NCBI GenBank assembly: GCA_934792465.1
Contig: CAKVOK010000002.1
Coordinates: 23,109-87,108 of the forward strand
Direction of reading: 5' to 3'
Origin: an uncultured Clostridia bacterium
GTDB lineage: Bacteria; Bacillota; Clostridia; RUG12999
Length of the DNA: 64,000 nucleotides
Shown: positions 37,929-64,000 of the stretch, in pieces
Layout: each line of letters opens with the position of its first letter
How positions within the stretch are numbered: the first letter of the stretch is position 1
Notes under the pieces: model-generated
What the model was told of the DNA's origin: nothing
Seen by the model: only the letters and a program-made list of their open reading frames with translations
The model's database searches: none
Made by a program: the position numbers and the translations under genes

Positions 37929-37936
37929 ATTTGCTA

Positions 37937-37965: not shown

Positions 37966-38007
37966 GTAGTCGATGAAAAATTTAATAAAAAAAGGGGATA
38001 AATACCA

Positions 38008-38643
38008 ATGATGAAAATTCTTTTTCAGGGTGATTCGATAACGGATTGCGGAAGAAACACAAGTAACGGAAGCATGATTTCCATAGGTCAGGGATACGCT
38101 ATGCTCGTATGCGCTGCACTCGGATATAAATATCCGCAGGAATATGAATTTGAAAACAGAGGAATCAGCGGGAACAGAGTTGTGGACGTGTATTCGAGAA
38201 TCAAGGCGGACGGCTGGAATCTTGAACCCGACGTGTTCAGCATACTCATAGGCGTAAATGATGTATGGCACGAAATAGGCGGCGGCAACGGCGTAGACGC
38301 CGCACGCTACGAGAAAGTGTATCGAATGATGATAGAAGATACGCTTGAAAGACTTCCCGATACGAAATTTATGATACTTGAGCCGTTTGTGCTTAAAGCA
38401 GCGGCAACGGAAGAGAAATGGGACGAATTTAAGAGCGAGGTTGCTCTGCGTGCCGCAGCTGCGAAGAGAGTGGCAGAGGACTATAACCTTGTCTTTGTTC
38501 CGCTTCAGGAAAAATTTGATGCGGCGGCAGAGAAAACAAATGATGCGTCCTATTGGCTTGCGGACGGAGTTCACCCGACACCGGCAGGTCACGGACTGAT
38601 AGCCGAAGCTTGGCTTGAAGCGTTTGAAAAGAATATAAAATAA
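38008..38643 (+). CDS. SGNH/GDSL-family hydrolase (carbohydrate esterase-like, candidate glycan deacetylase)
   Basis: Block I is GDSITDCG and block V is DGVHPTPAGH, within a ~210-aa protein. Confidence 0.8.
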   Translation: MMKILFQGDSITDCGRNTSNGSMISIGQGYAMLVCAALGYKYPQEYEFENRGISGNRVVDVYSRIKADGWNLEPDVFSILIGVNDVWHEIGGGNGVDAARYEKVYRMMIEDTLERLPDTKFMILEPFVLKAAATEEKWDEFKSEVALRAAAAKRVAEDYNLVFVPLQEKFDAAAEKTNDASYWLADGVHPTPAGHGLIAEAWLEAFEKNIK

Positions 38644-45394: not shown

Positions 45395-45416
45395 TCGGAG
45401 TCAGGGAGGAAAAAAG

Positions 45417-46370: not shown

Positions 46371-46383
46371 GGGCGGTGAAAGA

Positions 46384-47292: not shown

Positions 47293-47307
47293 AAGGAGGC
47301 AGGCAAT

Positions 47308-48936
47308 ATGAAAAAATCAATGAAAATCGTTGCGGCGGTATTGACGGCAACACTTATATTCACAGGCTGTTCAAACGGCAAAAAGAAAAAAGAGAACGTA
47401 AACGTAAAGCTTACGGAAACGGGAAGCTATCCCATAGTCGAAGAGCCGGTTACATTATCCGTGCTGACGCCGGCATCGACATATGTAGAAGATTATTCGA
47501 CAAATGAATTTACAAAATATTATGAGAAAAAAACAAATGTAAAAATAGATTGGCAGATAATATCCGGCGAGCTTGCGCAGAAGCTTAATGTTATAATCGC
47601 AAGCGGAAATTATCCCGATGTATTTTTAAACTGTACAATAAAGAAGCCGGCACAGGCACAGTACGGACGCGATGGAATTATACTCCCGCTTAACGATTTG
47701 ATAGAAAAGCATACGGTTAATATTAAAAAGGTACTCGGCGAGAATGAATATATCAAAAAGCAGTATACCGCACCGGACGGCAATATATACGGTCTCGGAG
47801 CTTTCTCCTCCGCATATCATGCGCGTACATCTACGAAGATGTGGGTGTATGAGCCGTGGCTCAAACAATCAGGTATAGATATGCCGGAAACAACTGAGGA
47901 TTTCAAAAACTTTCTTATTAAAGTGCGTGACGGAGATTTCAACGGCAATGGCAAAAAGGACGAAATACCGATTCTCGGACTCGGCACGAGAGATACGATA
48001 AAATTCATTATGAATGCGTTTACGTATATGGACGATTATGAAGATTTTGAGTTCTTTGTTGAAAACGGCAAGGTTGTGTATTCTCCGACAACAGACGGCT
48101 TCAAAGAGGGGCTTAAATATGTCAGAGATTTGTATAAAGAGGGACTTATAGCGAAAGACAGCTTTGTTATAGACCGCCAGCAGAGAACGGCGATAGTGGA
48201 AAACCGGGAATATCCGCTTGTTGCGTGCTGCCCGGCACTTTGGTACGGTCAGTTTACGGTAAACAACGGAGGCACCGGCAGATTTGCGGAATTTACGGCT
48301 GTGCCGCCGCTGACGGGTCCGTCCGGCAGAAAAGCCGCCGCTTTGCGTCAGCCGCTTATAGACGGTCAGAAATTCAGTATTTCAGCATCATGCGAATATC
48401 CCGAGGTTGCTATCCGCTGGATTGACAGATTCTTCTGCGAAGAGGGATTTCTCGATGCGGAAAAAGGTCAGGAGGGCGTAGGCTGGAGAAAGGCTAAGGA
48501 CGGCGAAAAGAATATTTTCGGTCAGCCGGCGAAATATGCCGACCTTACGGGAGAATTCGGTGAAACTCAGAATAAGCATTGGGTGCAGCTTGTTCCGGAA
48601 TACAGAAGTGAAGAAGGCGAATTTTTCTTTGCATCGGACGATACGAGCGGAAAGAGCCTTGAAGCAAGACTTTATAAGGAATCACAGAAATATGAGCCTT
48701 ATGTGGAGGATAAGACGTTGCCGGATATGTTCTACGGCGAGGACGTTATAAACGAATATTCCACCCTGAAAACGAATATTTATAACGAAACATATAAGAT
48801 GGTTGCGGATATGATACTCGGCGATAAGGAAATAGATTCGCAGTGGGATAATTATATAAGCACGCTTGAAAAACAGGGATTGAAAAGATATACGGAAATT
48901 CAGCAGAAAACATATGATAATTATATAAAGAATTAA
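47308..48936 (+). CDS. lplA: Extracellular solute-binding lipoprotein, LplA/YtcQ family (second copy)
   Basis: It has a lipobox (IFTGCSNG) and a ~540-aa size. It immediately follows the lplB/lplC pair. Confidence 0.8.
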   Translation: MKKSMKIVAAVLTATLIFTGCSNGKKKKENVNVKLTETGSYPIVEEPVTLSVLTPASTYVEDYSTNEFTKYYEKKTNVKIDWQIISGELAQKLNVIIASGNYPDVFLNCTIKKPAQAQYGRDGIILPLNDLIEKHTVNIKKVLGENEYIKKQYTAPDGNIYGLGAFSSAYHARTSTKMWVYEPWLKQSGIDMPETTEDFKNFLIKVRDGDFNGNGKKDEIPILGLGTRDTIKFIMNAFTYMDDYEDFEFFVENGKVVYSPTTDGFKEGLKYVRDLYKEGLIAKDSFVIDRQQRTAIVENREYPLVACCPALWYGQFTVNNGGTGRFAEFTAVPPLTGPSGRKAAALRQPLIDGQKFSISASCEYPEVAIRWIDRFFCEEGFLDAEKGQEGVGWRKAKDGEKNIFGQPAKYADLTGEFGETQNKHWVQLVPEYRSEEGEFFFASDDTSGKSLEARLYKESQKYEPYVEDKTLPDMFYGEDVINEYSTLKTNIYNETYKMVADMILGDKEIDSQWDNYISTLEKQGLKRYTEIQQKTYDNYIKN

Positions 48937-48956
48937 TATCAAAAGGAGAGAATGTC

Positions 48957-51170
48957 TTGAATAAACGAAAGGTATTTTTTGCTACATTTTTACTTTCATA
49001 TATTGTGCTTGCGATTGTGATAGCCGTGATTTATACGGGAGTATACGGCAGCTATGCGAAAACCTTAAAAACAAAAAGCGAACAATACAATGTATTGCAG
49101 TTAAAGAAGAACGTTTCGTTTATAGACAAGACACTGCAAAAGATAAATCTAAGCATGGAAGCGGTAAAAAGCTCGGACGCATTTGCGGAAATATGCAATG
49201 CCGACAGCGATGTTGACATTATAAATCTGATTAATATTCAAAACAGCCTGAAAAGCACAGAGGCGGACGAATATCTGTTTAAGGTGCAATATATAAGCCT
49301 GGCGGATAAAAATTTCATTGCGGCGCGCAGCAATTCCACGCTCGGCAAGGAAGAATATTTTTCGAAAATTGTACGTTTTAAAAATTTATCCGATGAAAAG
49401 ATAATGAAAACCGTCAGTTCGGGGAAGAAAAGCCGATATGTATTCCCTGCGGAAACGGTAACGCTGTCCGGCATAAAAACAAAAGCAATATCGGTTGTAA
49501 CGGTTTTCGAAAAAGACGGAAGAAAAATAGGATATATGAACAGCATAATAGCTGTAAAATCCGTGCGTGATGCCGTTATTGATGGATTTGAAAACGGATT
49601 TGCCGCTGTTTATGACGAAAATAAAAATTTGCTGTATGCGGACAAGGATTGTAAAACGGATTTTTACAAATACGACAAAATGCTTTTGAACGGCAAAAAT
49701 GTTGTTATTGCTTCAAGAAGCGATTATAACCGCTGGACATATGTGGTATCGGAAAATCAAAAATATGTTTTCGGAGCACTCAGCAGAGTAAAGCTGCTTA
49801 TATTTGCCGCAACACTGATTGCCATTATATTTGCGCTTGTTTTCGGCAAGCTTTTCATGCGAAAAAACGTAATGCCGATAGGCGAAATACTCGACCTTGT
49901 GGAGCATGACGGGGAAACCGAAGCGAAAAGCAGCATTTACGATAATATATATTCATATGTATTTTTACTGAAAAACGATTTGGAATTGCTGAAAAAATAT
50001 TTTGAGAAAAATGTGAATTTCTTGCAGGGAGGTATTGTAAGAAAGCTTTTGGACGGTGATTTCAAATCTGAAGAGGAGTTGTTTGAGCAATGCCGATATA
50101 CCGGTCTTGATTTTGAAAATCGGCTGTTTTGGATTACGGTGGTAAAATCCGGACCGGAATGGCTCGGACATGAGATTAAAATAAAAAATCAGGAGCTTGT
50201 GGAGGCATTATGCTACGCTGTTCTGGAAAAAAACGGGAAATATTATAAGGACACGGATTTTTATATCTGTCGTGCGGGAGAAAACATAACGGCGATTTTG
50301 TTCAGCAGAGTTTCGGGAGATATTTCAAAGGCGCAGAGGCACAGAGGCGGAATTGAACGTATTCTGAAAAAACAGCTGGACAATAAAATCGGCAAAGAGT
50401 TTTACCTCGGAACGGGAGAAACCGTGGAAGATGCACTTTTGATAAGCCGCAGCTACGGCGAAGTTTTGTCGGCTATTGAAAGGGAAAGGGCAATAAGTAA
50501 CGAAAAAAGCATGTCTATATCCGCAAATTATTGGTATCCTCTTGAAGTGGAGAACCGTATTGCCAATATGACCGTAAATGGCGAAATTGATGGGATTAAA
50601 AAGGTAATTTCGGAAATTGAAGAGAAAAATTTCAAGGAACAAAATCTGACGGATGCAGATTTGCTTGCATTGTATTATGAAATCAAGGCGACGCTTGTAA
50701 AGCTGCTGAAAATGAATTCGGTAGAGGTGTCGGAGGAGGTTATATCGGCACCGGACGAGAAAAAGCCGGAAGCGGCAGTCAGATACATTTTAAACGTCAT
50801 AGAAGAAATATGTAAGGAAAGCGGTAAAAAGAACAAAAACCGCGACGAAGAAAATTATGAAAGAATCAAACATTTCATATATAAAAATTATTGGAATCCG
50901 GATATGTCGCTGACGCTCATAAGCGATAAATTCGGGTTGAACGAAACGTATATCTCGGCTTTATTCAAAAAATACAACGGAAATTATTTGTCTTATCTCG
51001 AAAGCGTAAGGCTTGAATGTGCCTGCAAAATGATGCTGAGCGAAAAAATTAATATAAACGAGGTTGCGGAAATAGTGGGCTACAACAGCGACCAGTCTTT
51101 CAGACGTGCATTCAAGAGGTATTACGGTATATCGCCGACGAGCTATAAGGAGCTTTATAAGAATAAATGA
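48957..51170 (+). CDS. Transmembrane one-component AraC-family regulator with an extracytoplasmic sensor domain (second copy, paralog of 24150-26378)
   Basis: It has an N-terminal TM helix (FLLSYIVLAIVIAVIY) and a second TM helix at about residue 275 (LLIFAATLIAIIFALVFG). The C-terminal AraC HTH is LISDKFGLNETYISALFKK...VAEIVGYNSDQSFRRAFKRYYGISPTSYK. It has a TTG start after an AAAGGAGAG RBS. Confidence 0.7.
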   Translation: MNKRKVFFATFLLSYIVLAIVIAVIYTGVYGSYAKTLKTKSEQYNVLQLKKNVSFIDKTLQKINLSMEAVKSSDAFAEICNADSDVDIINLINIQNSLKSTEADEYLFKVQYISLADKNFIAARSNSTLGKEEYFSKIVRFKNLSDEKIMKTVSSGKKSRYVFPAETVTLSGIKTKAISVVTVFEKDGRKIGYMNSIIAVKSVRDAVIDGFENGFAAVYDENKNLLYADKDCKTDFYKYDKMLLNGKNVVIASRSDYNRWTYVVSENQKYVFGALSRVKLLIFAATLIAIIFALVFGKLFMRKNVMPIGEILDLVEHDGETEAKSSIYDNIYSYVFLLKNDLELLKKYFEKNVNFLQGGIVRKLLDGDFKSEEELFEQCRYTGLDFENRLFWITVVKSGPEWLGHEIKIKNQELVEALCYAVLEKNGKYYKDTDFYICRAGENITAILFSRVSGDISKAQRHRGGIERILKKQLDNKIGKEFYLGTGETVEDALLISRSYGEVLSAIERERAISNEKSMSISANYWYPLEVENRIANMTVNGEIDGIKKVISEIEEKNFKEQNLTDADLLALYYEIKATLVKLLKMNSVEVSEEVISAPDEKKPEAAVRYILNVIEEICKESGKKNKNRDEENYERIKHFIYKNYWNPDMSLTLISDKFGLNETYISALFKKYNGNYLSYLESVRLECACKMMLSEKININEVAEIVGYNSDQSFRRAFKRYYGISPTSYKELYKNK

Positions 51171-51199
51171 CAGAGATACATTAATCGGGAGGAAAGTAT

Positions 51200-54100
51200 A
51201 TGAGTTTCAAAAAAATATGTGCGTTTATGCTGTGCGTATTCATGCTGATTCCGTCGCTTTGTTCGGCGGAGGAAACGCTGTGGACGGAGAAGAATATTTC
51301 CGTGGACGAAACACAGCTGAATTGGGTCGGCGAAAGAAAATTTGATGATGTAAAGCCGATAACGAGAGGAGAAACGGCGGCACTCACGGCAAAGGCTCTC
51401 GGCATGGTTTATGCCGGTGATGACAGAAAATATAAAGACGTAAGCCAGGTATACGGTAACAGAATAAGTGCGGTAACGGCACTCAATATAATGCAGGGCA
51501 GCAGCGACGGATATTTTTATCCGGATTCGTATATTACGAGAGAAGAGCTTGCGGCTGTTGCCGTAAGGGCATATAATGCAGTATCACAGACACCTGTGTC
51601 GGCAGAGATTAAAGAGGATGCATACAACGATTTTGATATGATAAGCGACTGGGCGGCGGAATATGTGTTCGCAGCCGTTCAGCTGAAAGCGATTTCGGCA
51701 AAAAATAAGCTGATACGTCCGAAAGATTACGCAACAAGAGCGGAATGTATAGAGGCTGTGGCAAAGGCGGCAGGCTTAAAAATGTTCGAGTATACCAAAA
51801 CGGAAGCAAAGCAGCAGGATAAGACCGAAGCCGTTCAGAAGCCGCAGCAGGATTCGGGAAAGCTTATAACGGAGGTTAGCGAAGTCGGCGACAGTATTTT
51901 AAATGGCAGAGATATGGGAACCGTTGCCGAACTTGACGCTTCAAAAGATGTCAGCAAGGAATATGAGGTGTATCAAAAAGCGGTTGTAAGGAATCAGATG
52001 GGTACGAGCGGAATCTATATGAAAGCAAGATTTTCGGCAGGGAGTGCGGTAAAGCTTTATGCGGCAAGAACAACCGAGATACCGGAAATCGAAACCTCCG
52101 CACCGTATGCTCCGTCGTCATATCTTCGGGTATGCGACCCGGACGGCACTCTTGTGGGATTTTACGATTTTACGGATATTGAAGGCAAAAAGGCAATAGA
52201 AGTAGTGCCCTCGGTTAAAAAAGAGGGAATATGGACATTTACGTTTACGGGATGCCGTACAAACGATACGGTGGAATTCGGATTCGGCGGTGCTTCGTCA
52301 TGGGGAATAGGCGGCATGTCGGCATTTGTTCCGACAGAAACCACTCCGAACGAGATGTATGTATACTGCCAGCCACAGGCAATGGAAATACAGGTCGTTA
52401 CGGGTGCGAACGCAACGGTTGCGTTCAGCGATGAAACCGGCAAAAAAATAAGTCCCGAAGAGTTTAATTCATCGTGGTACAAGAAAAAATACACAGCAAA
52501 GCCGGCAATCGGCGACAGCGTGTATAAGCTGGAAATCGGCAAAGGCAGAGATGCGATAGCCATAGATATGGCACCGTCGCTGATGTGTCCCACTGCGGAA
52601 ATGGCTAAGGATTTGAAAGGCGGCTGGGTAGAAAGCCACGGCAAGCTTATGCAGGGACCGTTGCAGGCACGAATCAGAGATTTGGCGGTTAATATTGTTG
52701 ACAATTGCAATCTCGATGTCGATATAGGCGAAATTCCGCCGCTGCCGGCAAAGGAAGATATTAAGAATATCATGGCGGAAGCACAGATGTTCGGCAAATA
52801 TGCACCTATAGGCGGATTGAATTATGCTTTTAATATGCAGATTTTAGATACTGATGATATTTTCCTCGGATATATGGCAACGGAAAATGTGAAAAACGGC
52901 ACTGAAAAATTTGCCGATTATCAGGCAGGCGAATTTATGCAGGTAAATTTAAATCCTCTTGACGGAATGAGCGCCGCATTGAGAATACCGGCACAGCTTA
53001 ATTATTTTTACGGCAACGAAGCGCTTATGCGCCGCTGTGAGCTGTATCTTTTGAGTGGACTCTACAGCTTAAGCGAGGATATGTATGCCAGAGAGAACAG
53101 GCTTGATTCCGGTTCGACGGGCACAACGCACGCAGGCTTTTTCTTTAAATATACAACGCACGCATACCAGCTGCTGAAACCGCTTCTCCCGAAAGAAGAT
53201 CTTGAGATTATAGAGGAAGCAATAATAGCATATGCGGACGCACAGCCGAACTACAGGGGATATGTTACAAATCAAATGCTTCATGCTAACGAAGGGCTTT
53301 TGTGTACATATATTTCAACCGGCATCGAGCGTTATCATGAGGCTTGGAAACGTCAGATAAGAACCGTGATAAATCCTGTTAAAGGCTGGGACGGCTTCGG
53401 ATTTAATCACGAGGGCGGATATTATATTGAACAGCTGGGCTGCGATGGAAACTACAGCTGGCTGAATCAGTATTTCTTTGCGAATATGTACCGCGAATAC
53501 AGCTTGCTTGATACGGCAGATGAGGAAATATACACGGCAATGAGAAATATAATACACGAAAATATGGTATTTGAAAGCTATGCATGGCTTACGAATCCTT
53601 TGAACTGTGAGCAGGATTTCCCGATGTCCGATTCTTTTACAAGCCGTACAAAATCGTGGCACGGTTATATTAACGGATTCCCCGGAAAAGAACGTGTTAT
53701 GGATATAGAACCGCTGGCGAAACGCAGACAGCTTTTGCAGTATCATGACGATACGGGACCGTCATTCCCGTCAAGCGTATTTCCGCATTTGCTGAATAAT
53801 GAGGATTGGGCATATCAGCATATAAAGGAGCATTACACGGAATACGACAAGAAATTTGAACAGCACACAGGCGGCTGGACGAACGACTTGTACGGATTGT
53901 TTGAGGACGCATATTACGGCGAGAATAAAGACATGGAACCGGCGCAGCTCCCGTGCGAGGGCGAGGACGGAATCAAAGAATATCAGGGATTTATAGCATA
54001 TAAAAACAAGGGAATCTACGGCTATACGTTTTATAATTTCAGGCAGGAATGGAATCTCCCGGCTATATCGTGGATGGGCGGAGGACCGAACATAATCTGG

Positions 54101-54616
54101 AGCGAAAAAACGGGCGGCAGCCTTATGGGACAGAAGCCAACGGATTATGCAAATCCGAAAAACGTGGATTCACCGGACAAAATAAAACATTCCTGCGTAT
54201 ACTTTACGGACGCTTCGGGAACGTTCATAGCAAGCGGAAAGGAAAAAGCTTCGCTGAAATGGATTGAGGAAAACAAAATCTGGGAAATATCCGGAACTAT
54301 GCCGGAAACGAATCAGACGGTTACGTGGAGATATGAGCTTACGGACAGCGGAATCAGAATCGCAGTATCGTTATCATCTCCGAAAGGCATAACAGCATGG
54401 GTTAATCTGCCGTTGTTTGAAAATAATAAGGGAACTGCTTTGAGGGTTGAAAAATACAGCGAGGGCAGCCTGGACATAGGCAGAGGAAGCAATATTATGA
54501 CATACAAATGGGATTCCGATAAATCCAAGCTTGAGGAAGCCGGTGATTTGGTGAGAAATTTAAGAATACAGATCCCGAAAAGCGGAAAAGTCACAATAGA
54601 TATTTCGTGCAGATAG
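51200..54616 (+). CDS. Large SLH-anchored secreted protein (1138 aa). Its domains, in order: N-terminal SLH repeats, beta-sandwich region, predicted (alpha/alpha)-toroid region, C-terminal beta-sandwich. It belongs to no recognisable CAZy family and is a candidate novel glycan-active enzyme.
   Basis: It has a signal peptide. The SLH repeats are ITRGETAALTAKALG, YITREELAAVAVRAY and YATRAECIEAVAKAAG. The conserved block IDMAPSLMCPTAEMAKDLKGGW and a helical region with repeated aromatic-rich helices are shared with the 58537 protein. Confidence 0.55.
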   Translation: MSFKKICAFMLCVFMLIPSLCSAEETLWTEKNISVDETQLNWVGERKFDDVKPITRGETAALTAKALGMVYAGDDRKYKDVSQVYGNRISAVTALNIMQGSSDGYFYPDSYITREELAAVAVRAYNAVSQTPVSAEIKEDAYNDFDMISDWAAEYVFAAVQLKAISAKNKLIRPKDYATRAECIEAVAKAAGLKMFEYTKTEAKQQDKTEAVQKPQQDSGKLITEVSEVGDSILNGRDMGTVAELDASKDVSKEYEVYQKAVVRNQMGTSGIYMKARFSAGSAVKLYAARTTEIPEIETSAPYAPSSYLRVCDPDGTLVGFYDFTDIEGKKAIEVVPSVKKEGIWTFTFTGCRTNDTVEFGFGGASSWGIGGMSAFVPTETTPNEMYVYCQPQAMEIQVVTGANATVAFSDETGKKISPEEFNSSWYKKKYTAKPAIGDSVYKLEIGKGRDAIAIDMAPSLMCPTAEMAKDLKGGWVESHGKLMQGPLQARIRDLAVNIVDNCNLDVDIGEIPPLPAKEDIKNIMAEAQMFGKYAPIGGLNYAFNMQILDTDDIFLGYMATENVKNGTEKFADYQAGEFMQVNLNPLDGMSAALRIPAQLNYFYGNEALMRRCELYLLSGLYSLSEDMYARENRLDSGSTGTTHAGFFFKYTTHAYQLLKPLLPKEDLEIIEEAIIAYADAQPNYRGYVTNQMLHANEGLLCTYISTGIERYHEAWKRQIRTVINPVKGWDGFGFNHEGGYYIEQLGCDGNYSWLNQYFFANMYREYSLLDTADEEIYTAMRNIIHENMVFESYAWLTNPLNCEQDFPMSDSFTSRTKSWHGYINGFPGKERVMDIEPLAKRRQLLQYHDDTGPSFPSSVFPHLLNNEDWAYQHIKEHYTEYDKKFEQHTGGWTNDLYGLFEDAYYGENKDMEPAQLPCEGEDGIKEYQGFIAYKNKGIYGYTFYNFRQEWNLPAISWMGGGPNIIWSEKTGGSLMGQKPTDYANPKNVDSPDKIKHSCVYFTDASGTFIASGKEKASLKWIEENKIWEISGTMPETNQTVTWRYELTDSGIRIAVSLSSPKGITAWVNLPLFENNKGTALRVEKYSEGSLDIGRGSNIMTYKWDSDKSKLEEAGDLVRNLRIQIPKSGKVTIDISCR

Positions 54617-54627
54617 GAGAATTCAAA

Positions 54628-55902
54628 ATGAAAAGAATTTGTTTGTTGTTATGTACGGTAATTTTCTTCGCCATGCCCTGCATGGCGGAGAAAAACGGCA
54701 GAAACTATATTTTTGAAACGGATTTCGGAGGATATACCGAGGGTGACGACGCAATAAAATACTTGGCGTCAACGGGGCTTACGTCAACGTTTTCAGCAGA
54801 AATGGGCGACAGGATTGAGATATGCGACGGTGCTTTGTATGTTGATATATCCGAGAGAAGCAGCGGATTTCCGAGTATGAAAATACCGAAATCCTATACA
54901 CAGGATAAAGACGTGCTTGTATTGGAATTTGATTTGAAGCTTGCCGGGAAATTGAGCGCAATGACGTTTCCGCAGTTTGGTACGATTGCCCAGACGTGGA
55001 TGGGCGTAAGCTCTAACGATACGGCACTTGACGCACGCTTTACGGATGCGTCCGTGACAAGCGGAAACAAATGGAGAAGTGCCGGAGTAATATTCAAATG
55101 GGGAGAAAATGCGCCGTGGTATCATTTTAAATATACAGTTGATGTCGGTGCGTCAAAAATGGCGGTAAACGTGAGCGGCGAACCGAGCTTCAACGACAAT
55201 AACATACCGATATTTTCGGGTTCGGGCATACCCGTAATATCTTTTGATATACGGGGCGGAGCATATATGATAGATAATATAGAGCTTTATACTATGGGCA
55301 AAATGCAGATTAAAAGCTCCGGTATTCAAAACGGCGATGTAAATGTTCCGTGCGAAAAATCCGTAGATATAGAGTTTACACAGGATGTGGACGAAAGCAC
55401 GTTAAACGAAATCACGATATCGGGACTTGAAACCGGAGATTATACCGTAGAAAAGATAAACGGTAATATGGTGCGCATTAAGTTTAAAAAGCCTCTGGAA
55501 TATGCCACCGAATATACAGTGAATGCAGAGAAAATTAAAGCGGTAAACGGACTTGCGGCGGACGGAGCGGTAATAAGCTTTACAACGGAAGCCGCACCGG
55601 AGGTATATATAAAAGACGTTTCCGCAGTTTATGACGGAAATATGCAAACGGTGACGGTAAAGGTTGCGAATACGTCTGCCGAAAGTAAAAGCATGACTCT
55701 GTTTATGGCGGTATACGACGAATATAACAGCTTAACGCAAATGAACTGTATCAGCTGCACTGCGGAAGCGGAAAGCGAGAAAACCGCTGTGCTTGCGCAG
55801 AAGAATGCGAACGGCACGGTGAAACTGTATCTGTGGAACAGTGCAGAGCTTATGCAGCCGTATTGCATGGAATACATGCCGGATTTTACGGAGGGTAACT
55901 GA
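54628..55902 (+). CDS. Secreted ConA/LamG-like domain protein with a C-terminal Ig-like domain (Y-E-x-D-F family member)
   Basis: It has a signal peptide (FFAMPCMA), then NYIFETDFGG. The LamG-like core ends YMIDNIELY. It is followed by Ig-like beta domains. Confidence 0.5.
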   Translation: MKRICLLLCTVIFFAMPCMAEKNGRNYIFETDFGGYTEGDDAIKYLASTGLTSTFSAEMGDRIEICDGALYVDISERSSGFPSMKIPKSYTQDKDVLVLEFDLKLAGKLSAMTFPQFGTIAQTWMGVSSNDTALDARFTDASVTSGNKWRSAGVIFKWGENAPWYHFKYTVDVGASKMAVNVSGEPSFNDNNIPIFSGSGIPVISFDIRGGAYMIDNIELYTMGKMQIKSSGIQNGDVNVPCEKSVDIEFTQDVDESTLNEITISGLETGDYTVEKINGNMVRIKFKKPLEYATEYTVNAEKIKAVNGLAADGAVISFTTEAAPEVYIKDVSAVYDGNMQTVTVKVANTSAESKSMTLFMAVYDEYNSLTQMNCISCTAEAESEKTAVLAQKNANGTVKLYLWNSAELMQPYCMEYMPDFTEGN

Positions 55903-55903
55903 T

Positions 55904-57262
55904 ATGAAAAAAATATTTATTTTAGTAATGCTTGCCGTATCGGTGTTTGGTACATCGTATGCCGCCGGCATTGAAACGATATATGAGGAAGATTTTGAAA
56001 CCACGGGCAAATTAACGGCTGTGCAATACATGGACGAAAATGCGAATATAGAACAGCCGAAAGTAACGAATAGCGGACTGAAAAGTATAGATTTCGTGAA
56101 GGAGGGCGGCTCGAATGCACTTAAATTCACGGGATATACTTCATCGGAGTTGTCGGGAAACGGCACAAAAACAGTAAACTTTGTTTTTGACAAACCGTAT
56201 ACGCTTGCGGATTATCCGAATACCAAGCTTGTTGTTTCGTTCTCGGAATATATAACGCTTGCCGATGCGAATGCATATGAGCATACATATATTCAAGGCG
56301 GCGGGAAAAATGTTATTCAGATGTTCTGGTCGGCAAAGAATGGCGAAGCACCCTTATACAGATGCAATAACAAGGGCAATATAGGCAAAAAAGCGGACTT
56401 GAACCGAAAAATAGAATCAATATATGTTTTTGATATGGAAAACAAAATGTTCGATTTTATTTTCGACGGCAGCGAGTTTAATTCAAATTCTATGATGTCC
56501 GATACGGTTACGCAAATAGACATGTTGGGATTCAAAATAGAAAAAGGACATATATTTTCAGTCGATAATATAAAGGTTTATGCCATATCTGCCGGTGTTC
56601 CGCTCGAAATAACCGAGCCGAGTCTGAACGGCGATGAAAACGTGAACGTGGAAAGCGGATTTACGGCGAAAATTTCTTCGTACATTAAAAATGAAGATAA
56701 AATAAGTGTGACGGCAGGCGGCACAACACTTGATAAAAGCAAATATTCGATAAATCAGAAATATGTTGCCGAGGACGGCGGATATGTTCTGCTTACGCTG
56801 AAATTTAACGAAAAGCTTGATTATCTTACAAAATATGAAATAATATTTGATTCCGAGCTTAAAGACATAACGGGGACGGCGTTGGGTGAAACAAAAATAT
56901 TTGCGTTTACGACCGAAAAAGAAGCGAGAGTATATATGAACGGAGTTGAATGTTTTTCGGGATTTTCGGGCACCGGAGAACGGCTTATATCCGTTGCCGA
57001 GGCAAACGGGAAATATGTAACGTTTCGTATATCGGCGGCAAATGACTTTACATCGGAAAAAACAGGCGCATTTGTTGTAGAATGTTGTGATGCCGACGGA
57101 AATCCGCTCACAAAAGCTGTTCTGGAGGGGAAATTTATTGCCGGAGAAAACAGTTTTACATACGGCACATATATCGGAAACGATATATGCAGCGTGAAAG
57201 CGTATGTTATTGATTCTGTGATCGGCGGGAAAATGATGTCCGATACGGCGGTGTTTGAATAA
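55904..57262 (+). CDS. Secreted ConA/LamG-like domain protein with a C-terminal Ig-like domain (Y-E-x-D-F family member)
   Basis: It has a signal peptide (VFGTSYAAG), then IETIYEEDFETTG. The core ends IFSVDNIKVY. It is a paralog of 57327-58532. Confidence 0.5.
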   Translation: MKKIFILVMLAVSVFGTSYAAGIETIYEEDFETTGKLTAVQYMDENANIEQPKVTNSGLKSIDFVKEGGSNALKFTGYTSSELSGNGTKTVNFVFDKPYTLADYPNTKLVVSFSEYITLADANAYEHTYIQGGGKNVIQMFWSAKNGEAPLYRCNNKGNIGKKADLNRKIESIYVFDMENKMFDFIFDGSEFNSNSMMSDTVTQIDMLGFKIEKGHIFSVDNIKVYAISAGVPLEITEPSLNGDENVNVESGFTAKISSYIKNEDKISVTAGGTTLDKSKYSINQKYVAEDGGYVLLTLKFNEKLDYLTKYEIIFDSELKDITGTALGETKIFAFTTEKEARVYMNGVECFSGFSGTGERLISVAEANGKYVTFRISAANDFTSEKTGAFVVECCDADGNPLTKAVLEGKFIAGENSFTYGTYIGNDICSVKAYVIDSVIGGKMMSDTAVFE

Positions 57263-57326
57263 AATAGATAATTGCATTATAATATTTTACAATTAACCGA
57301 TTTGAATAAACCGAAAGGAGAAAATA

Positions 57327-58532
57327 ATGAAGAAGTTTTTTGCTGCGGTTTCGGCGGCAATATGGCTCACGGTCGGCGTTTCGGCAAACGATAACTGCCT
57401 GATGTATCATGATTTTGAGGGGATTACCGACAATGCCGAAACGTATATTTCGGATACGGAAAGTATTATAACATCAAGTACGAACAGCGGATTGAAAAAT
57501 TATGATTTTATATTTGAAAACGGAAGTACAAGACTTTGCTTTACCGCTTACAAATCCGGAGAATTAACGGGCAATGCATCGAGAAAATTTGCATTTGTGT
57601 TCCCTGAATACAGTCCTGAAAAATATCCCGGCACAAAGCTTGTGCTTGGATATGATGAAACGGTATATGAAAGAAGGGACGGAAACAATATTCATATGAA
57701 TGTGTCCGACGGCACCGGAAAACAGATGACGCAGCTTTTTGCATTCCCGGAGGGAGATTCCGATAAGCTGCGTATGCTTATGAAAGATACGGTATACGTG
57801 CGTCACGGAGAAAATACCGAATACAGGCTGACAGCAGATATAGGTACGCAAAAATTTGTGTTCGGCGTTGGAGAGAATTTCAGCAAGGAGTATGATTTTC
57901 AAAGCAATATATCGGAGATTTCAATGATTTCATGGTTACCGACAAAGAATGAAAAATATTCCCTGGATAATATATATGCATGGGTTGTGCCGAATACGTT
58001 TTCGGTATCGGAATATACAAAAAAAATAAGAGTTTCCGATAAAAAAATATCTGTGTATTTATCAGCTCCGGCGGACAAAACCGTATTGGACAAAATAAGT
58101 GTTAATAATGAGAAAAGCGGATTTTTTGTAACACAGAATTTTAAGAAAGCACAGCTGGATATAGTTCTTAAAAATGTTTCTTACGGCGAAAAGTATAAAA
58201 TAAGCTTTGAGGACGGATTTAAAGACATTGCCGGGAATAAGATGACTGCGGAATTTGAAGCGGTAGCCGAAAGCTTTCCCGAATTTAATATTGATTCATC
58301 ATATGAGCATATCGGAAACGATATAAAATATCGGGCATATGCCGAAAATCCATCCGAAAGCAGTGCAAAAGCATATATTATTGCCGGACTCTATGACGAA
58401 AACGGCATACTTACTCAATGTGCATTTTTTGAAGGTATGTTTAAACCTATGCAAAAGCAGGGATTTGAGGGTGTGTTCAAGGATTGTGCAAATTCAAATG
58501 TAAGGATATATGCGGCAGCAAAAGAGGGGTGA
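57327..58532 (+). CDS. Secreted ConA/LamG-like domain protein with a C-terminal Ig-like domain (Y-E-x-D-F family member)
   Basis: It has a signal peptide (WLTVGVSAND), then CLMYHDFEG. Aligned blocks are TNSGLKNYDF / TNSGLKSIDF and PGTKLVLGYDETVY / PNTKLVVSFSEYI. The core ends YSLDNIYAW. Confidence 0.5.
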   Translation: MKKFFAAVSAAIWLTVGVSANDNCLMYHDFEGITDNAETYISDTESIITSSTNSGLKNYDFIFENGSTRLCFTAYKSGELTGNASRKFAFVFPEYSPEKYPGTKLVLGYDETVYERRDGNNIHMNVSDGTGKQMTQLFAFPEGDSDKLRMLMKDTVYVRHGENTEYRLTADIGTQKFVFGVGENFSKEYDFQSNISEISMISWLPTKNEKYSLDNIYAWVVPNTFSVSEYTKKIRVSDKKISVYLSAPADKTVLDKISVNNEKSGFFVTQNFKKAQLDIVLKNVSYGEKYKISFEDGFKDIAGNKMTAEFEAVAESFPEFNIDSSYEHIGNDIKYRAYAENPSESSAKAYIIAGLYDENGILTQCAFFEGMFKPMQKQGFEGVFKDCANSNVRIYAAAKEG

Positions 58533-58536
58533 GCAT

Positions 58537-61500
58537 ATGAAGAAAATAATTGTATTTATTATAATGCTCGCCGTTATTACAATGCAGGCTGCCGCATATG
58601 TCACGGAACCGCTTACTGTGTATGACGGCAAGCTCGGCATGTACGAAACGAAGGTATATACGGACGAAGCGGTAACGCTTAAAGCATATTCGGGCGGCGA
58701 GGAAGCGGAAAGCGTGTCGAAGCTGACATCGGGCGGCGGATATATAGGTATCCGTACAAAAAAAGATATGGAATACAAGCTGTTTCGCAACGGAACGGAA
58801 ATAATTCCGCAAAGCTTTGATTATACGGCAGATTTTACGGTGACGGGAACCTCGGCAAATAGCGGATATTCGCCGCAGGAAAAGCTGTATTTTGAATTTT
58901 CCGAACCGATACTTCAAAGCAGTATCGGCTCAATAAAGGTGTATGCGAACGGCAAAGAGGAAAACGTCACCGTTTCGGCTGCGGAAAATAGGATAGAAAT
59001 ATCGAGGGCAAAAGGTTTGTTTGCTTATAATACGGATTTTAAGGTTGATTTGAGCGAACTTTGCGATTTGCTTGAAAGAAAGCTTGAAATCAGCGTATAC
59101 GAATTTAAAAGCTGCGATGTATCGGAAAATTTTTCGGTGTATCAGGAAGCAAAGGTATTTTCGCAGGCAGGTATAGGCGGATTCGCCATGCTTGCGGAAT
59201 TAAGCGGAGATACGGTTTTTCATTTTTCGAGAAAGACGCAGATTCCGAAAAGCGAAGCACTTCCGTTTGTTCCGTCATGCTATGCGAAAATATACGACCC
59301 GAACGGACGGCTCGCATACATATATGATTTTACATATTCGGAAACAGGTACGGAAATTCGGGAAGTATCGCTTCCGTATATGGAGGGAATATGGCAGATT
59401 CAGTTCATAAGCGGACGGGAAAAGGATATTCTCGGCATAGGCATATCGAATGCCGAAAGCTGGGGCGTAAGAGGAGAAACGATTCTCGGCATTACAGAAA
59501 CAACGCTGAAAAGCAGTTATGTTTATGTTGCGGAAAAAGCGGACAGCATGATAGTATCTTCAACGGCAGGCAGCAGCTTTAAAATATACGCTGAGGACGG
59601 AACGCCGAAAGGTACTTCGGGCACTGTTTCGGGAAAAACATTCGCAAGAACAAATTGTGAAATAAGCAATATTTCGGCAGATGAAGTGTATCGCATAGAA
59701 TTGGACGAATATTTCCGTGACGGAATCATAGTGGACAGAATACCGTCGCTTATGTGTCCCACAGCGGAAATGGCAAGGACGCTTAAAGGCGGCTGGGAAG
59801 ATGCCGACGGCATAATCGTGCAGGGGGCAGTGCAGAAAAATATGCGGAAAGAAGCGTTACGGCTGCTCAGAGAGAAAAATTTGAACGTATCAGCACCGCA
59901 AAAACCGCAGCAGCTGCCGAATATCGAAAACCCTGTTGCGGAAAGCCTTATGTTCGGCTCATACGGTCTTGTATCTCCTGTCGGCGACCAAATAAAACGC
60001 CAGGTAACAGATCCGTCAAGCCCGTATCTCGGCAGATTTTTGACAACGGCGGAATATAATTCGGGTAATATGGTTTCGTGGGAAACGGGAAACTATAATG
60101 CATGGGGTTCAACGGCATTCGGCGCACTTGCCGCAACAAATGCGGAGCTTAATTATTTCTACGAAAACGAAGCGCTGATAAACAGAAGTGCATTGTCGAT
60201 TCTCGGCAGTCTTGCGGCGCTTTCGGAGGATTTTATCATACGTGAGGGAAACGATGCGGCGAATTATCCGACAACGCACGGGAATTTTTATTTCAGCTGG
60301 ATTTCCAAATGCTATGCATATATAAGGGATTATCTCGATGAGCAGACAAAAAATACCATAGATTTGGGTATTTCCGCACTTTGCGACAAACAGGGAAATT
60401 ACAGAGGAATGAGAGTGAATAATCAATGGATGTTCACTGTGACGGCTGTTGAAGCGGTATCGAGGTCGGTGGGCGAAAACCGTCATTTGGATTTCGCCAA
60501 GCGGCATATAAGAGGGCTTGCGAACGGCTCGCATCTCGGCTGGCAGGGTCAAAGCTCGGCAGGCTATTATATTGAAAACAACGGGTGCGACGGCTCGTAT
60601 CACAATCTTAACCGACAACTCATATATACAATGTACAAGGAGCATAAGGCTTCGGAAAACGCAGACGGAGAAATTCTTGCTATGCTTAGTGAATCGATAA
60701 AAAAGAATGTTGAATTTGCCTCTCTGTTTTGGGTAACACAGCCGGAATATACGGATGCATACGGCCCGAACTGCTTTACGACCAGAACAGACGCAGCGGC
60801 AGAATGTATAGACCATATGGCATATCCGGCTATAGCCGATGAATTTCCGCTTGCAAAACGCAGATTTGAGGTTCAGAATATGCCGAAAAAAGGATTCGGC
60901 GGAGCAGGAACATTTCCGTATTATGTCAACAATGACGAATGGGCAATGCGCCTTATAAACCGATATTGGACTTCATACGAAAATGGGACGAGAGGATATT
61001 CCTCAAACGGAAGTCCGCAATGGTATGAAGTATTGAAAAATCGTGATAATTGCACAGCGGAACCGCTTCCGTGCGAATATGAAAGCGGAATTTGGGAAGA
61101 ACCGGGTATTATTGCAGTAAAGCATAAGGGTATATATTTCAATGTCTTTTATGCGTTCCCGGAAAGCATTTCCATGCCGGAAAAGTCGTATATGGGCGGA
61201 GGAATCACAATGCTTTGGAGCGAGCCTACGGGAACGGTTGTTGCTTCCGAAAAGCATAAAAACTATCCGAATGTGAGAAATGCCGATGATATAAGGGCGA
61301 CTTGCGTATACGGCGAAAACGAAAACGGCGGATTTATATTCAACGGGAAAGGCAAGGCAGAGCTTGAGTGGCTTGAAAACGGAAAAAGCTTTGAAATTTC
61401 GGAAAGTATACCGAACAGCTCAGCAAGCGTTGCATGGACATATACTCTGCTTGAAGATTGCGTTGAAATGAAAGTTAAAGCAAGCGGTATTACAAACGGA

Positions 61501-61956
61501 GCGGTGAATATTCCGATAAAAAAGACAGAGGAAAAAGCCGTTGTGACAAGTGATGAAAATGCTGTGTATTATACATACGGAAATGAGGAGGTCGCATTTT
61601 CGAGCGAGAATGAATGCAGCGTAATAGCGGACGGCAATATATCAAAACTGCGTGTGAAGCTTGACGGGAATAACGAGGCGAAAATTATGATTTCCGCACA
61701 GCTTACGGGAGGATTACAGATAGCAGAGGAAAACGGCGGAGATGTAACACTGCTGAACGGAAACGCAGGGACAAAAAATGCAGATGTTTATTATGTGGAA
61801 TATGACAAAAAGGGACGAATTACATCAGCAGAAAAACGAACAGTGTCTGTAAAGGCGCATGAATACAAAAAGATTTATATTACAGATGGAAAGCGTATAT
61901 TTATATGGGACGGAAATATGAGTCCCGTGCAGCGGAAAGGAATGGTACGGCAATGA
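58537..61956 (+). CDS. Large secreted protein (~1140 aa), paralog of 51200-54616, with N-terminal Ig-like domains instead of SLH repeats. It is a candidate novel glycan-active enzyme.
   Basis: It has a signal peptide (MLAVITMQAAA). Blocks shared with 51200 are IPSLMCPTAEMARTLKGGW, NYFYENEAL, GCDGSYHNLN, and the Y.NFR/FYAFPE and WSE.TGG regions near the C-terminus. I place the start at ATG 58537. Confidence 0.55.
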   Translation: MKKIIVFIIMLAVITMQAAAYVTEPLTVYDGKLGMYETKVYTDEAVTLKAYSGGEEAESVSKLTSGGGYIGIRTKKDMEYKLFRNGTEIIPQSFDYTADFTVTGTSANSGYSPQEKLYFEFSEPILQSSIGSIKVYANGKEENVTVSAAENRIEISRAKGLFAYNTDFKVDLSELCDLLERKLEISVYEFKSCDVSENFSVYQEAKVFSQAGIGGFAMLAELSGDTVFHFSRKTQIPKSEALPFVPSCYAKIYDPNGRLAYIYDFTYSETGTEIREVSLPYMEGIWQIQFISGREKDILGIGISNAESWGVRGETILGITETTLKSSYVYVAEKADSMIVSSTAGSSFKIYAEDGTPKGTSGTVSGKTFARTNCEISNISADEVYRIELDEYFRDGIIVDRIPSLMCPTAEMARTLKGGWEDADGIIVQGAVQKNMRKEALRLLREKNLNVSAPQKPQQLPNIENPVAESLMFGSYGLVSPVGDQIKRQVTDPSSPYLGRFLTTAEYNSGNMVSWETGNYNAWGSTAFGALAATNAELNYFYENEALINRSALSILGSLAALSEDFIIREGNDAANYPTTHGNFYFSWISKCYAYIRDYLDEQTKNTIDLGISALCDKQGNYRGMRVNNQWMFTVTAVEAVSRSVGENRHLDFAKRHIRGLANGSHLGWQGQSSAGYYIENNGCDGSYHNLNRQLIYTMYKEHKASENADGEILAMLSESIKKNVEFASLFWVTQPEYTDAYGPNCFTTRTDAAAECIDHMAYPAIADEFPLAKRRFEVQNMPKKGFGGAGTFPYYVNNDEWAMRLINRYWTSYENGTRGYSSNGSPQWYEVLKNRDNCTAEPLPCEYESGIWEEPGIIAVKHKGIYFNVFYAFPESISMPEKSYMGGGITMLWSEPTGTVVASEKHKNYPNVRNADDIRATCVYGENENGGFIFNGKGKAELEWLENGKSFEISESIPNSSASVAWTYTLLEDCVEMKVKASGITNGAVNIPIKKTEEKAVVTSDENAVYYTYGNEEVAFSSENECSVIADGNISKLRVKLDGNNEAKIMISAQLTGGLQIAEENGGDVTLLNGNAGTKNADVYYVEYDKKGRITSAEKRTVSVKAHEYKKIYITDGKRIFIWDGNMSPVQRKGMVRQ

Positions 61957-64000
61957 GCAAGGCGGAATGGATGAGCGGAAAATACGGTGTTATGGTTCAT
62001 TATCTTTCGCATATACTTTCGGCAGACGGTACAAAAAAGCTGTCGCCGAACGAAATGGCGGAGAATTTTAATGTAAAAGAATTTGTGAAAAGTATAAAGA
62101 GAATGGGCGCAAGCTGGGTTATATTCCCGATAGGACAAAACACGGGATTTTATTGGTCGGAAAATCCGTATATAGAGAAGCTTGCGCCGGGACATTGCGC
62201 AAATCGTGACCTTATTTCGGATATTGCGGAGGAACTTAATGTGCAGGGCATACGGTTTATCGCATATCTGCCGACAGAAACGGATGCGCAAAGCGAGGAA
62301 ATGAGAAAGGCGTTCGGCTGGGATTTGTCGGCGGACAAAAAAGAATTTATGAAAAGATATATTCCGATTGTAAGATATTATGCGGAAAAATTCGGCGATA
62401 AACTCAGCGGCTGGTGGTTTGACGGCAATTACAAATCGTCTGAAAAATCGTTTTTAAGAACGCATGACTGGGATAACGGCAGATTTGACAGGGAAGAATG
62501 GTTTGCTGCCGTTAAGGCGGGAAACCCCGAAGCTGCGGTTGCTATGTGTACAGGTGCAAATCATATGGGATATGTTTTTGAGGAAGAGGAGTATTTGCCC
62601 GGAGAAACGAATGATTTGACGCATTTCCCATGGGAATATGACAGCCGGGAAAAACAGTGGCACGTACTTACGTGGCTGGATTGCTTCTGGATGTACGGCG
62701 AGGGCAAAATGCCTCCTTTGAGATATTCAAACAAGACATTGTATGAATATGTCAGAAGATGCACCGACAAAAAAGGTGCGGTCACGCTGAATATAGGAAT
62801 ATATGAGGACGGCACACTTGCAGAGGAGGCCGTTCACCAGGTCGAGGGACTGCGTACTGCGCTTGCCGTTGAAAATCCTATAGAGTTGACAAATATATAC
62901 GGAGAATTGATTAAAAAATTTGAAATCCATGCGGATAGTATGAAAGACGAAATGCCGTATGAGCCGGCGGCATGCGAGGACGGAATGTATGCCGAAAAAG
63001 GTTCGGAACTTAGCAGTATGTGGAACTGGACAACATCGTTTGTAACGGGTCTTGCGCCTATGTATTATCAGGTTGAAAAGTCGGAAAAATATTTGAAATG
63101 GGCAAATGCTTTTGAAAAATATTATCATGCGAAGATGTTTGATACGCCGCTTGAAAGTATGCACGATATAGGTTTTTTATACAGTCCGTACAGCGTGGCA
63201 ATGCATAAGCTTACGGGTGATATGTCGCACAGAAACGACGCACTTCGTGCAGCAGATGAGCTTGCAAAACGTTTCGATATAAACGGACGGTATATTGACG
63301 CATGGGGACGTATGAATGACGACGGCAGAACAGGCAGAGCGATTATAGATTGCATGATGAATATAGCACTGCTGATGTGGGCATTTAAAGAAACGGGTCA
63401 TACGTATTACCGTGACGTCGCAAAGGCACATGCAGATACTACGAAAAAATATTTTATACGTGACGATTTTTCGGTTGCACATTCGTTTGATTTCGACAGA
63501 AAAACAGGCAAGGTTTTGAGAGAAAACAACGGCTGCGGATATGCAAACGGCAGCTGGTGGGCGAGAGGAACGGCATGGGCGATTTACGGCTTCGCTCTTA
63601 TCGGCAGATACGAAGAGGAATACGCTCGGCTTTCGGAGAAAATAGCCAAGGCTTATATAGGCCGGCTCGAAAAGGATAAATATGTGCCTGTCTGGGACTT
63701 CAGACTGCCGAAAGATATGCCGGCAAAGAAGTGCGGCACAGAACCTGCCGATTGGGACGAAACAGACGCAAGGAATAAAATATATAATGTAGATACGTCC
63801 GCTGCGGCAATATCGGCGTGCGGAATGCTTACGCTGTATGAACTCGGCGGCAGCACGGATATGCTTTCTTTCGCAGTGAAAACGCTGGAAGCGCTTAGTG
63901 CGGAATATGTGAACAGAAACGTGAATGTTCCCGGCATTCTGAAATATCAGAACGGGCAGAAATCATATACAACCTACGGCGATTATTTCTATACGGAGCT
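61953..64000 (+). CDS. Two-domain glycoside-hydrolase fusion. The N-terminal half is an uncharacterised GH-like module; the C-terminal half is a GH88/GH105-like unsaturated uronyl hydrolase domain. The 3' end lies outside the window.
   Basis: My in-frame translation finds no stop codon to the window end. The N-terminal half includes GASWVIFPIGQNTGFYWSENPY...GWWFDGNYKS. The C-terminal half includes HDIGFLYSPYSVAMHKL, RAIIDCMMNIALLMWAF and WWARGTAWAIYGFALIGRY, which match GH88/105 motifs. The start overlaps the stop of the upstream gene (ATGA). Confidence 0.55.
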   Translation, partial: MSKAEWMSGKYGVMVHYLSHILSADGTKKLSPNEMAENFNVKEFVKSIKRMGASWVIFPIGQNTGFYWSENPYIEKLAPGHCANRDLISDIAEELNVQGIRFIAYLPTETDAQSEEMRKAFGWDLSADKKEFMKRYIPIVRYYAEKFGDKLSGWWFDGNYKSSEKSFLRTHDWDNGRFDREEWFAAVKAGNPEAAVAMCTGANHMGYVFEEEEYLPGETNDLTHFPWEYDSREKQWHVLTWLDCFWMYGEGKMPPLRYSNKTLYEYVRRCTDKKGAVTLNIGIYEDGTLAEEAVHQVEGLRTALAVENPIELTNIYGELIKKFEIHADSMKDEMPYEPAACEDGMYAEKGSELSSMWNWTTSFVTGLAPMYYQVEKSEKYLKWANAFEKYYHAKMFDTPLESMHDIGFLYSPYSVAMHKLTGDMSHRNDALRAADELAKRFDINGRYIDAWGRMNDDGRTGRAIIDCMMNIALLMWAFKETGHTYYRDVAKAHADTTKKYFIRDDFSVAHSFDFDRKTGKVLRENNGCGYANGSWWARGTAWAIYGFALIGRYEEEYARLSEKIAKAYIGRLEKDKYVPVWDFRLPKDMPAKKCGTEPADWDETDARNKIYNVDTSAAAISACGMLTLYELGGSTDMLSFAVKTLEALSAEYVNRNVNVPGILKYQNGQKSYTTYGDYFYTE

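Follow-up and report, generated by a model that had tools for sequence, protein, structure and literature searches.

The ProtA and ProtB genes and their operon

The stretch of DNA analyzed here, referred to as the window, comprises 64,000 nucleotides of contig CAKVOK010000002.1 (assembly GCA_934792465.1) from an uncultured Clostridia bacterium. On its forward strand lie the genes of two large proteins, ProtA (51200..54616, 1138 amino acids) and ProtB (58537..61956, 1139 amino acids), the A-type and B-type members of a previously unnamed family which may be one of polysaccharide lyases. Both were delimited with BLASTP, Pfam and a hidden Markov model (HMM) of the family, and ProtA also from the list of open reading frames. 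In that list the frame of ProtB starts at 58510; the start at 58537 is preceded by the Shine-Dalgarno sequence AGAGGGGTGA and followed by the signal peptide MKKIIVFIIMLAVITMQAAA, and for these two reasons it is the credible one. ProtA residues are numbered from the 51200 start, and ProtB residues in the BLASTP comparison follow the 58510 numbering.

In a sequence-only reading of the window, the two proteins had been described as paralogues with a shared core of about 900 amino acids, and this proved right. In BLASTP, ProtA (residues 248-1072) and ProtB (residues 201-1003) displayed 34% identity and 51% positives over 835 amino acids (E 5e-133), a likeness far beyond chance. The family HMM located the common core, of about 870–900 amino acids, at residues 241-1138 of ProtA and 187-1055 of ProtB, and the motifs quoted in that reading (PSLMCPTAEMA[KR].LKGGW, LNYFY.NEAL and GCDG.Y..LN) were found. 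Before the core, ProtA has a signal peptide (residues 1-23), an SLH wall anchor (about 28-195) and a linker rich in Lys, Gln and Glu (about 196-240). ProtB has a signal peptide, an N-terminal part (about 21-186) that is rich in beta structure and includes a segment weakly resembling Big_5 and, after the core, a tail (1056-1139).

Concerning the N-termini, swapped anchoring modules had been proposed, with three SLH repeats in ProtA, and Ig-like domains but no SLH in ProtB. The part on ProtA stands: its SLH region (51281..51784, forward strand) matched Pfam SLH with E 2.8e-16, and residues 44-189 aligned with the three-repeat SLH module of the protein encoded from 26488 (33% identity over 149 amino acids), as befits an SLH-anchored cell-wall protein, in which three repeats are the norm. 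Two repeats were scored, and a degenerate first one, outside the scored match, can perhaps be recognized by eye at residues 28-75. In ProtB, Pfam found no SLH, as had been said, while the Ig-like domains are at most hinted at by a score of 18.2 bits with Big_5 (PF13205, E 0.004), below the gathering score of 23.6, and by an hhalign comparison with the Big_5 region of the protein encoded from 54628 (P 0.0025, probability 12%). So, the difference is one between an anchor and no recognizable anchor, rather than a swap. Compared to the SLH-anchored carbohydrate-active enzymes of Clostridia, ProtA has its SLH at the N-terminus, as do the SLH-bearing lyase-like and lectin-like proteins in its neighborhood; however, its presumed catalytic module is unclassified, and ProtB and many other family members lack SLH.

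The location of the pair inside a glycan locus was confirmed by their neighbors, all of them on the forward strand. The gene of an AraC-type regulator (48957..51170, 737 amino acids) lies directly upstream of ProtA, a position that it also keeps in four of the family loci of other genomes (L001, L022, L026 and L027). Between ProtA and ProtB there are three secreted proteins: a Big_5-domain protein (54628..55902), conserved at this place in the orthologous loci, a second one (55904..57262), and a third, Big_5-like one with a weak Pfam match (57327..58532), which is a paralogue of the second. After ProtB comes a fusion of a GH29-like alpha-L-fucosidase with a GH88 unsaturated glucuronyl hydrolase (61953..64000), devoid of signal peptide and running off the window. 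From the AraC gene to ProtB, the successive gaps are 29, 11, 1, 64 and 4 nucleotides, and the start of the GH29-GH88 gene overlaps the ProtB stop as ATGA, i.e., with translational coupling. Upstream of the AraC gene there are an ATP-binding cassette (ABC) sugar importer, made of two permeases and a solute-binding protein (45369..48936), a 927-amino acid protein (42611..45394), a protein with three C-terminal SLH repeats (40954..42597) and a 686-amino acid secreted protein (encoded from 38874). A promoter and terminator scan of 48000-64000 yielded signals at background level. The whole operon is kept, at 55–66% identity, in L001, L022 and L026. L022 encodes the GH29 and GH88 parts in two genes; L001 has the fusion, and so, probably, does L026, the 705-amino acid product of which runs off the locus.

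The window contains two GH88 modules, which matched solved unsaturated glucuronyl hydrolases with E values of 4e-44 and 6e-120. An assignment of these genes to the pectin-type GH105 was rejected on account of those matches. Both being true unsaturated glucuronyl hydrolases, the intermediate to be expected is an oligosaccharide with 4,5-unsaturated glucuronate at its end.

Family size, novelty and ancient divergence

The libraries consulted were Pfam (2025), NCBIfam (2026) and the PDB sequences (2026). Searched as single sequences, the cores of ProtA and ProtB had no match in any of them, and the PDB sequences were also searched with phmmer and with a profile, the only profile matches being non-significant (E 0.6–0.8). 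Nine distant relatives were equally free of Pfam domains, except for one dockerin. This bears out the remark of the sequence-only reading that no known family motif is present, and makes the family new relative to Pfam, NCBIfam and the PDB sequences. A literature search found no characterized member and no new polysaccharide lyase family of this kind.

A word-indexed search recovered 11 close relatives among 5.8 billion clusters, and an exhaustive profile search of 1.84 billion representatives yielded 286 relatives at E ≤ 1e-3, 131 of them at E ≤ 1e-30. The only name given to family members by any source is 'hypothetical protein'. A genome scan produced 21 loci, all in metagenome-assembled genomes of uncultured Clostridia, Oscillospiraceae or Monoglobales, with four of the loci in one genome. 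The modules attached to 38 diverse members were SLH (15 members), Big_5 (four), Golvesin_C (three) and, once each, GDSL esterase, Laminin_G_3, CBM_11 and ChitinaseA_N. Such decoration with modules of the carbohydrate-binding, esterase and dockerin types is as expected for a carbohydrate-active enzyme.

In a neighbor-joining tree of HMM-aligned cores, ProtA grouped with the upstream copies of L001, L022 and L026, and ProtB with the downstream copies of the same loci plus L002 and L011. The A-type and B-type copies thus form separate deep clades, held together in four genomes, which means that the duplication predates these lineages and that both copies have been retained together. The description of the pair as duplicated and diverged is therefore correct if the event is taken as ancient; a recent local duplication of ProtA and ProtB was rejected on the basis of the two clades. 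Recent tandem duplications were seen in other pairs, those of L008 and L019. The A and B clades are distinguished by 14 alignment columns, among them H695/F633 (ProtA/ProtB), three residues past a conserved Asn-Gln pair, and Y942/N869, two residues past an invariant Tyr. Both of these pairs flank candidate catalytic residues (see below). Such differences fit with different specificities of ProtA and ProtB, one of the options of the sequence-only reading, as far as can be judged from the alignment.

Predicted fold and structural neighbors

When the ProtA core was modeled with AlphaFold2 from an alignment of 10 sequences, the mean predicted local distance difference test (pLDDT) score was 81.2 and the predicted template modeling (pTM) score 0.83. 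In core numbering, the model consists of beta strands (1-220), helices (225-666) and again beta strands (684-898). With the help of the conservation among 79 full-length members, some of them only 25% identical, three regions were delimited on the forward strand: an N-terminal beta region (residues 241-460, 51920..52579) with the near-invariant R290, D356 and W368; an alpha/alpha toroid (residues 465-906, 52592..53917) with most of the conserved polar residues, i.e., Q489, R493, E527, Q547, N601, R612, N691, Q692, E744, D749, Y752 and R816; and a C-terminal beta sandwich (residues 924-1138, 53969..54613). The toroid flanked by beta-sandwich regions, guessed at from the sequence, is thus what the model displays.

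The best Foldseek matches were lyases of families PL8 and PL12 (E 5e-7 to 9e-6, with a template modeling (TM) score of about 0.4 for PL8). Further structural neighbors were cellobiose 2-epimerases (toroid only), heparinase III (15.2), PL15 (482 aligned), PL17, PL40 and heparinase II, all of them with 7–10% identity. The best neighbors are therefore polysaccharide lyases made of a toroid plus beta sheets, in agreement with the architecture proposed in the sequence-only reading, and the model contains the two-domain fold of the heparinase II/III type, with the toroid followed by an antiparallel beta-sheet domain. With respect to sequence, ProtA and ProtB gave no Pfam match to Hepar_II_III (PF16889/PF07940) at E ≤ 1, and neither did the nine distant relatives. 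Profile-profile comparisons of the family (profiles of 10 and 79 sequences) with the heparinase-like, GH88, GH95, GH29-GH88, 927-amino acid and 686-amino acid proteins of the window showed no relationship.

Six-hairpin hydrolases and phosphorylases also appeared among the structural matches, but only over the toroid or one beta domain (170–290 residues). A different function for the family would be that of a glycoside hydrolase or phosphorylase with a scaffold of beta sandwich and (alpha/alpha)6, like those of GH15, GH65, GH94 and GH95, hydrolyzing a neutral or acidic linkage. The beta-toroid-beta order of domains is shared with GH95-type enzymes, and there are GH95 and GH29-like genes in the locus. 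However, no Pfam match tied the proteins to the six-hairpin families (GH88/GH105, GH95 or GH15/65/94), and hhalign to the GH88 and GH95 proteins of the window was non-significant. This alternative is considered unlikely, and it is taken up again below with the residues that speak for it.

Another possibility is a uronate C5-epimerase or a sugar isomerase, with dermatan-sulfate epimerase and the AGE-type 2-epimerases as its relatives in fold; such an enzyme would modify the polysaccharide and not cut it. C5-epimerases and lyases share their first step, the abstraction of the C5 proton, and a profile match to N-acetylglucosamine 2-epimerase covered the helix of the Asn-Gln pair. Nevertheless, that match was non-significant (E 0.68), the structural matches to 2-epimerases span only the toroid (281–286 residues), and ProtA is secreted and wall-anchored, its operon being a catabolic one that encodes an importer and exo-glycosidases, where depolymerization is needed. 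So, an epimerase or isomerase appears very improbable.

Compared to individual lyase families, the differences are considerable. PL8, represented by chondroitin AC lyase (2WDA), xanthan lyase (1J0M) and hyaluronate lyase (1F1S), combines like ProtA a toroid with a beta sandwich, and it works with GH88 in Firmicutes; however, it is 9–12% identical to the family without detectable sequence relationship, its toroid is incomplete, and its catalytic set is of the Asn/His/Tyr/Arg kind. PL35 (GAGase II, 8KHV; chondroitinase, 9O3Q) is 10% identical and gives no HMM match. Relative to PL35, ProtA and ProtB are about twice as long, with an extra N-terminal beta region of about 220 amino acids and a longer toroid with disordered loops, and members of the family often bear SLH.

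Conserved residues and candidate active site

In the 79-member alignment, five polar residues were invariant (N691, E744, Y752, R816 and Y940) and several others nearly so: Q692 (78/79, the exception being His), R612 (78/79), and D749, D356 and W368 (76/79 each). No His was conserved, the best His column reaching 46 of the 79 members. N691 and Q692 (53270..53275) stand at the start of a toroid helix and, in view of their conservation and of the comparison with known lyases (PMC12088678), are a candidate carboxylate-neutralizing pair. E744, D749 and Y752 occur in the motif GYYIEQLGCDGNY (53429..53455), with the arrangement E-x4-D-x2-Y. R816 (53645..53647) is in a toroid loop of low pLDDT, and Y940 (54017-54019) in a strand K-N-K-G-I-Y of the beta sandwich. 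The ProtB equivalents are N629, Q630, E680, D685, Y688, R750 and Y867, together with H863. In the AlphaFold2 model, N691-Q692 and Y752 are located at the N-termini of toroid helices one hairpin apart.

The catalytic sets of lyases with this kind of fold (PMC12088678, Table 4) are N192/Y246/H401 in PL35, N240/Y294/H424 in PL12, N336-H337/Y390/H555 in the PL15 exoHep, H200-N201/Y258/H413 in PL17, N186-H187/Y239/H405 in PL39 and H202(E205)/Y257/H406 in PL21. In these six families, the spacing from the first residue to the Tyr is 53–57, the third residue is supplied by the beta domain, and N-H pairs are known in PL39 and the PL15 exoHep (PMC12088678). In ProtA, N691 and Y752 are 61 residues apart, and Y940, 34 residues past the last toroid helix, has a position in the beta domain comparable with that of the third catalytic residue, a His in all six. 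The family thus departs from the Hepar_II_III lyases (PL12, PL15, PL17, PL21 and PL39) and dermatan-sulfate epimerase 1 in the longer Asn-to-Tyr spacing (61 versus 53–57) and in the fact that their His is not conserved. It departs likewise from PL35: H401, the catalytic His which the beta domain supplies there, has no conserved counterpart in the family, and the residue conserved in that region is the invariant Y940. In the general form of the strand around this Tyr, K-x-K-G-[IL]-Y, x is His in 29 and Arg in 21 of the 79 members; it is H863 in ProtB (61123-61125) and N936 in ProtA (54005-54007).

From these comparisons, Y752 is a candidate catalytic Tyr. The same set of residues also speaks for the hydrolase or phosphorylase alternative, with E744 (79/79) and D749 (76/79) as the candidate acid and base and with no His conserved.

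Family loci in other genomes and surface partners

The strongest clue to a lyase role came from the family loci of other genomes. L027 is a minimal operon composed of an AraC-type regulator, two permeases, a binding protein, a GH88, a family member with Golvesin_C and SLH modules, and an alpha/beta hydrolase; no lyase was recognizable in it. L029 contains two family members, one of them directly before a GH88 gene. Altogether, the family stands beside GH88 in three independent types of operon, with an ABC importer adjacent and without a recognizable lyase in the operon. A GH88 hydrolase requires a lyase to produce its substrate, so the orphan GH88 of L027 and L029 need a partner for which the family member is the only evident candidate. 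The hydrolase or phosphorylase reading of the family would leave these operons without such a partner, and this counts against it.

Other family loci are of a different nature. Divergent clades (L008/L010 and L013/L016/L019/L020, and also L024 with L008) lie amid housekeeping genes, not glycan loci; their neighbors include type III glutamine synthetase, pyruvate formate-lyase and its activase, peptidase U32, galT/galK, recN and spoIVB. Three distant members are on short contigs, the context of which is uninformative. On the other hand, a module formed by an SLH protein, a protein of about 900 amino acids resembling the 927-amino acid one, a family member and one or more Big_5 proteins recurs, at 25–32% identity, in L003, L005, L006, L009, L012, L028 and L029. 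This recurrence suggests a functional surface assembly and not a chance neighborhood, and a surface complex of the SLH, 927-amino acid and Big_5 partners with ProtA and ProtB is a reasonable idea.

The 927-amino acid protein had no Pfam match, SLH included. In a model built from database homologues (pLDDT 70, pTM 0.44), its N-terminus (about residues 29-175) matched the SLH trimers of SpaA/Sap (Foldseek probability 1.0, TM 0.56–0.65), so that the N-terminal part has a cryptic SLH fold; small beta domains, arranged in a chain, make up the rest. A distant paralogy links the protein to the SLH protein encoded at 18080-20722.

The possibility that the family consists of non-catalytic surface proteins, i.e., glycan-binding or structural parts of an SLH-anchored assembly with an enzyme-like fold but no chemistry, has to be considered at this point. 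It would agree with the recurrence of the module with SLH, 927-like and Big_5 proteins in divergent genomes, with the housekeeping surroundings of some clades, as is often the case of constitutive surface proteins, and with the missing His of the canonical triad. However, the 79 members, down to 25% identity, agree fully or almost fully in seven polar residues located at the N-termini of toroid helices, the usual catalytic face, and enzymes typically show such a pattern. The joining of some members to carbohydrate-binding modules, a GDSL esterase and a dockerin, and the translational coupling of ProtB to the GH29-GH88 gene, point in the same direction. The proteins being non-catalytic is thus improbable, if less so than their being epimerases.

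Another observation on the partners concerns the C-terminal tail of ProtB (about 84 amino acids, 61702..61953), which is absent from ProtA and was overlooked in the sequence-only reading. Weakly similar C-termini occur in the three Big_5 proteins and in the 686- and 561-amino acid secreted proteins (encoded from 38874 and 16375). The six share a weak pattern of about 90 amino acids, YDxxGxL ... VKxYxWDS..M.P, at the approximate sites 61702-61953, 55590-55899, 56950-57259, 58220-58529, 40620-40931 and 17750-18057, and all of them are without SLH. When HMMs were built leaving out one tail at a time, the omitted tail ranked first or close to first among the open reading frames not used for training in five of six tests, with E values of only 0.1–2. 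The likeness of the tails among non-SLH secreted proteins is thus suggestive only. A broader proposal combines it with the above: a lyase family of heparinase fold without the canonical catalytic His, with the Asn-Gln pair, Y752 and the Tyr of the beta domain in the places of Asn/His, Tyr and His, working in gut Clostridia within a conserved SLH-anchored surface apparatus of several proteins (the SLH protein, the 927-amino acid protein, a wall-bound A-type enzyme, the Big_5 proteins and a B-type enzyme), to which the parts devoid of anchor would dock via the C-terminal module of about 90 amino acids. Taken as a whole, this proposal is rather doubtful.

Proposed function

The interpretation that we favor is that ProtA and ProtB represent a new lyase family with a heparinase-type fold, of which the wall-bound A-type and the B-type copies diverged anciently. 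The chemistry, the roles of the residues and the substrate would be as follows. Both proteins would have an extracellular substrate, a polysaccharide that contains glucuronate and is probably fucosylated, with ProtA held at the wall by its SLH repeats and ProtB either free or kept in place by protein contacts. Cleavage would proceed by beta-elimination, with N691 and Q692 neutralizing the uronate carboxylate, Y752 acting as base and/or acid, and Y940 of the beta domain (plus H863 in ProtB) standing in for the usual His. The oligosaccharides with a 4,5-unsaturated glucuronyl end would then be imported by the adjacent ABC system and trimmed in the cytoplasm by the GH29-GH88 fusion, with the AraC-type regulator controlling the operon.

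Several observations weigh against a lyase function. No sequence-level tie to any lyase family was found, the hhalign comparison of the family profile with the heparinase-like protein of the window giving a probability of 0.2%. The equivalences between the conserved residues and the lyase triads are deduced from spacing and secondary structure only, and the usual Asn/Tyr/His triad is incomplete for want of a conserved His, while the invariant E744 and the conserved D749 would be just as appropriate in a hydrolase. The association with GH88 is limited to the three independent operon types, a GH88 being within 10 kb at some loci only, and the divergent clades are amid housekeeping genes. In the window itself, a heparinase III-like lyase 21 kb upstream could be an alternative source of unsaturated products. 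Finally, novelty was judged on Pfam, NCBIfam and the PDB, and a recent classification of the family in CAZy is conceivable. Because of the divergent clades, the limited occurrence of GH88, the residues E744 and D749 and the missing His, the arguments for and against a lyase can be said to be in approximate balance.

New lyase families turn up regularly. This one is set apart by being large, rare and confined to uncultured gut Clostridia, and by the lack of the canonical His and the conservation of its surface partners. If the lyase activity is true, ProtA and ProtB would found a new polysaccharide lyase family; operons with GH88 but no recognizable lyase would be accounted for; about 300 cluster representatives labeled as hypothetical would gain a better annotation; and the family would be a test of whether a heparinase-type active site works without a conserved His. 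So far, the known members all come from uncultured Clostridia of the guts of herbivores and humans, a group of bacteria whose glycan-degrading enzymes are poorly charted next to those of Bacteroidota. The module of SLH and Big_5 partners could indicate a Gram-positive surface assembly for glycan degradation other than the cellulosome.

Other features of the window

A second, separate glycan sub-locus is found at 24150-38640. It contains an AraC/dCache regulator, an ABC importer, a GH95, a GDSL esterase, the second GH88, which is the one close to a streptococcal unsaturated glucuronyl hydrolase (6e-120), and a protein with SLH, CBM96 and a heparinase III-like part (PDB 4mmi, 3e-14). When the catalytic part of the latter (27538-29487) was used as a query, no protein at E ≤ 1e-10, itself included, was retrieved from the 5.8 billion clusters, so that either the word index is limiting here or the gap is real; in contrast to this query, ProtA and ProtB are present in that collection.

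Two adjacent SLH proteins at 12261-15869, one of them with a CAP domain, share an SLH module of 169 amino acids; its 76% identity suggests either gene conversion or local duplication in the recent past. Other upstream proteins, encoded at 16375-24027, are secreted or SLH-bearing and lectin-like, with Laminin_G_3, F5/8 type C and aBig_2 domains. At its N-terminus, the 561-amino acid protein shares 34% identity with the Laminin_G_3 region of the 1098-amino acid SLH protein.

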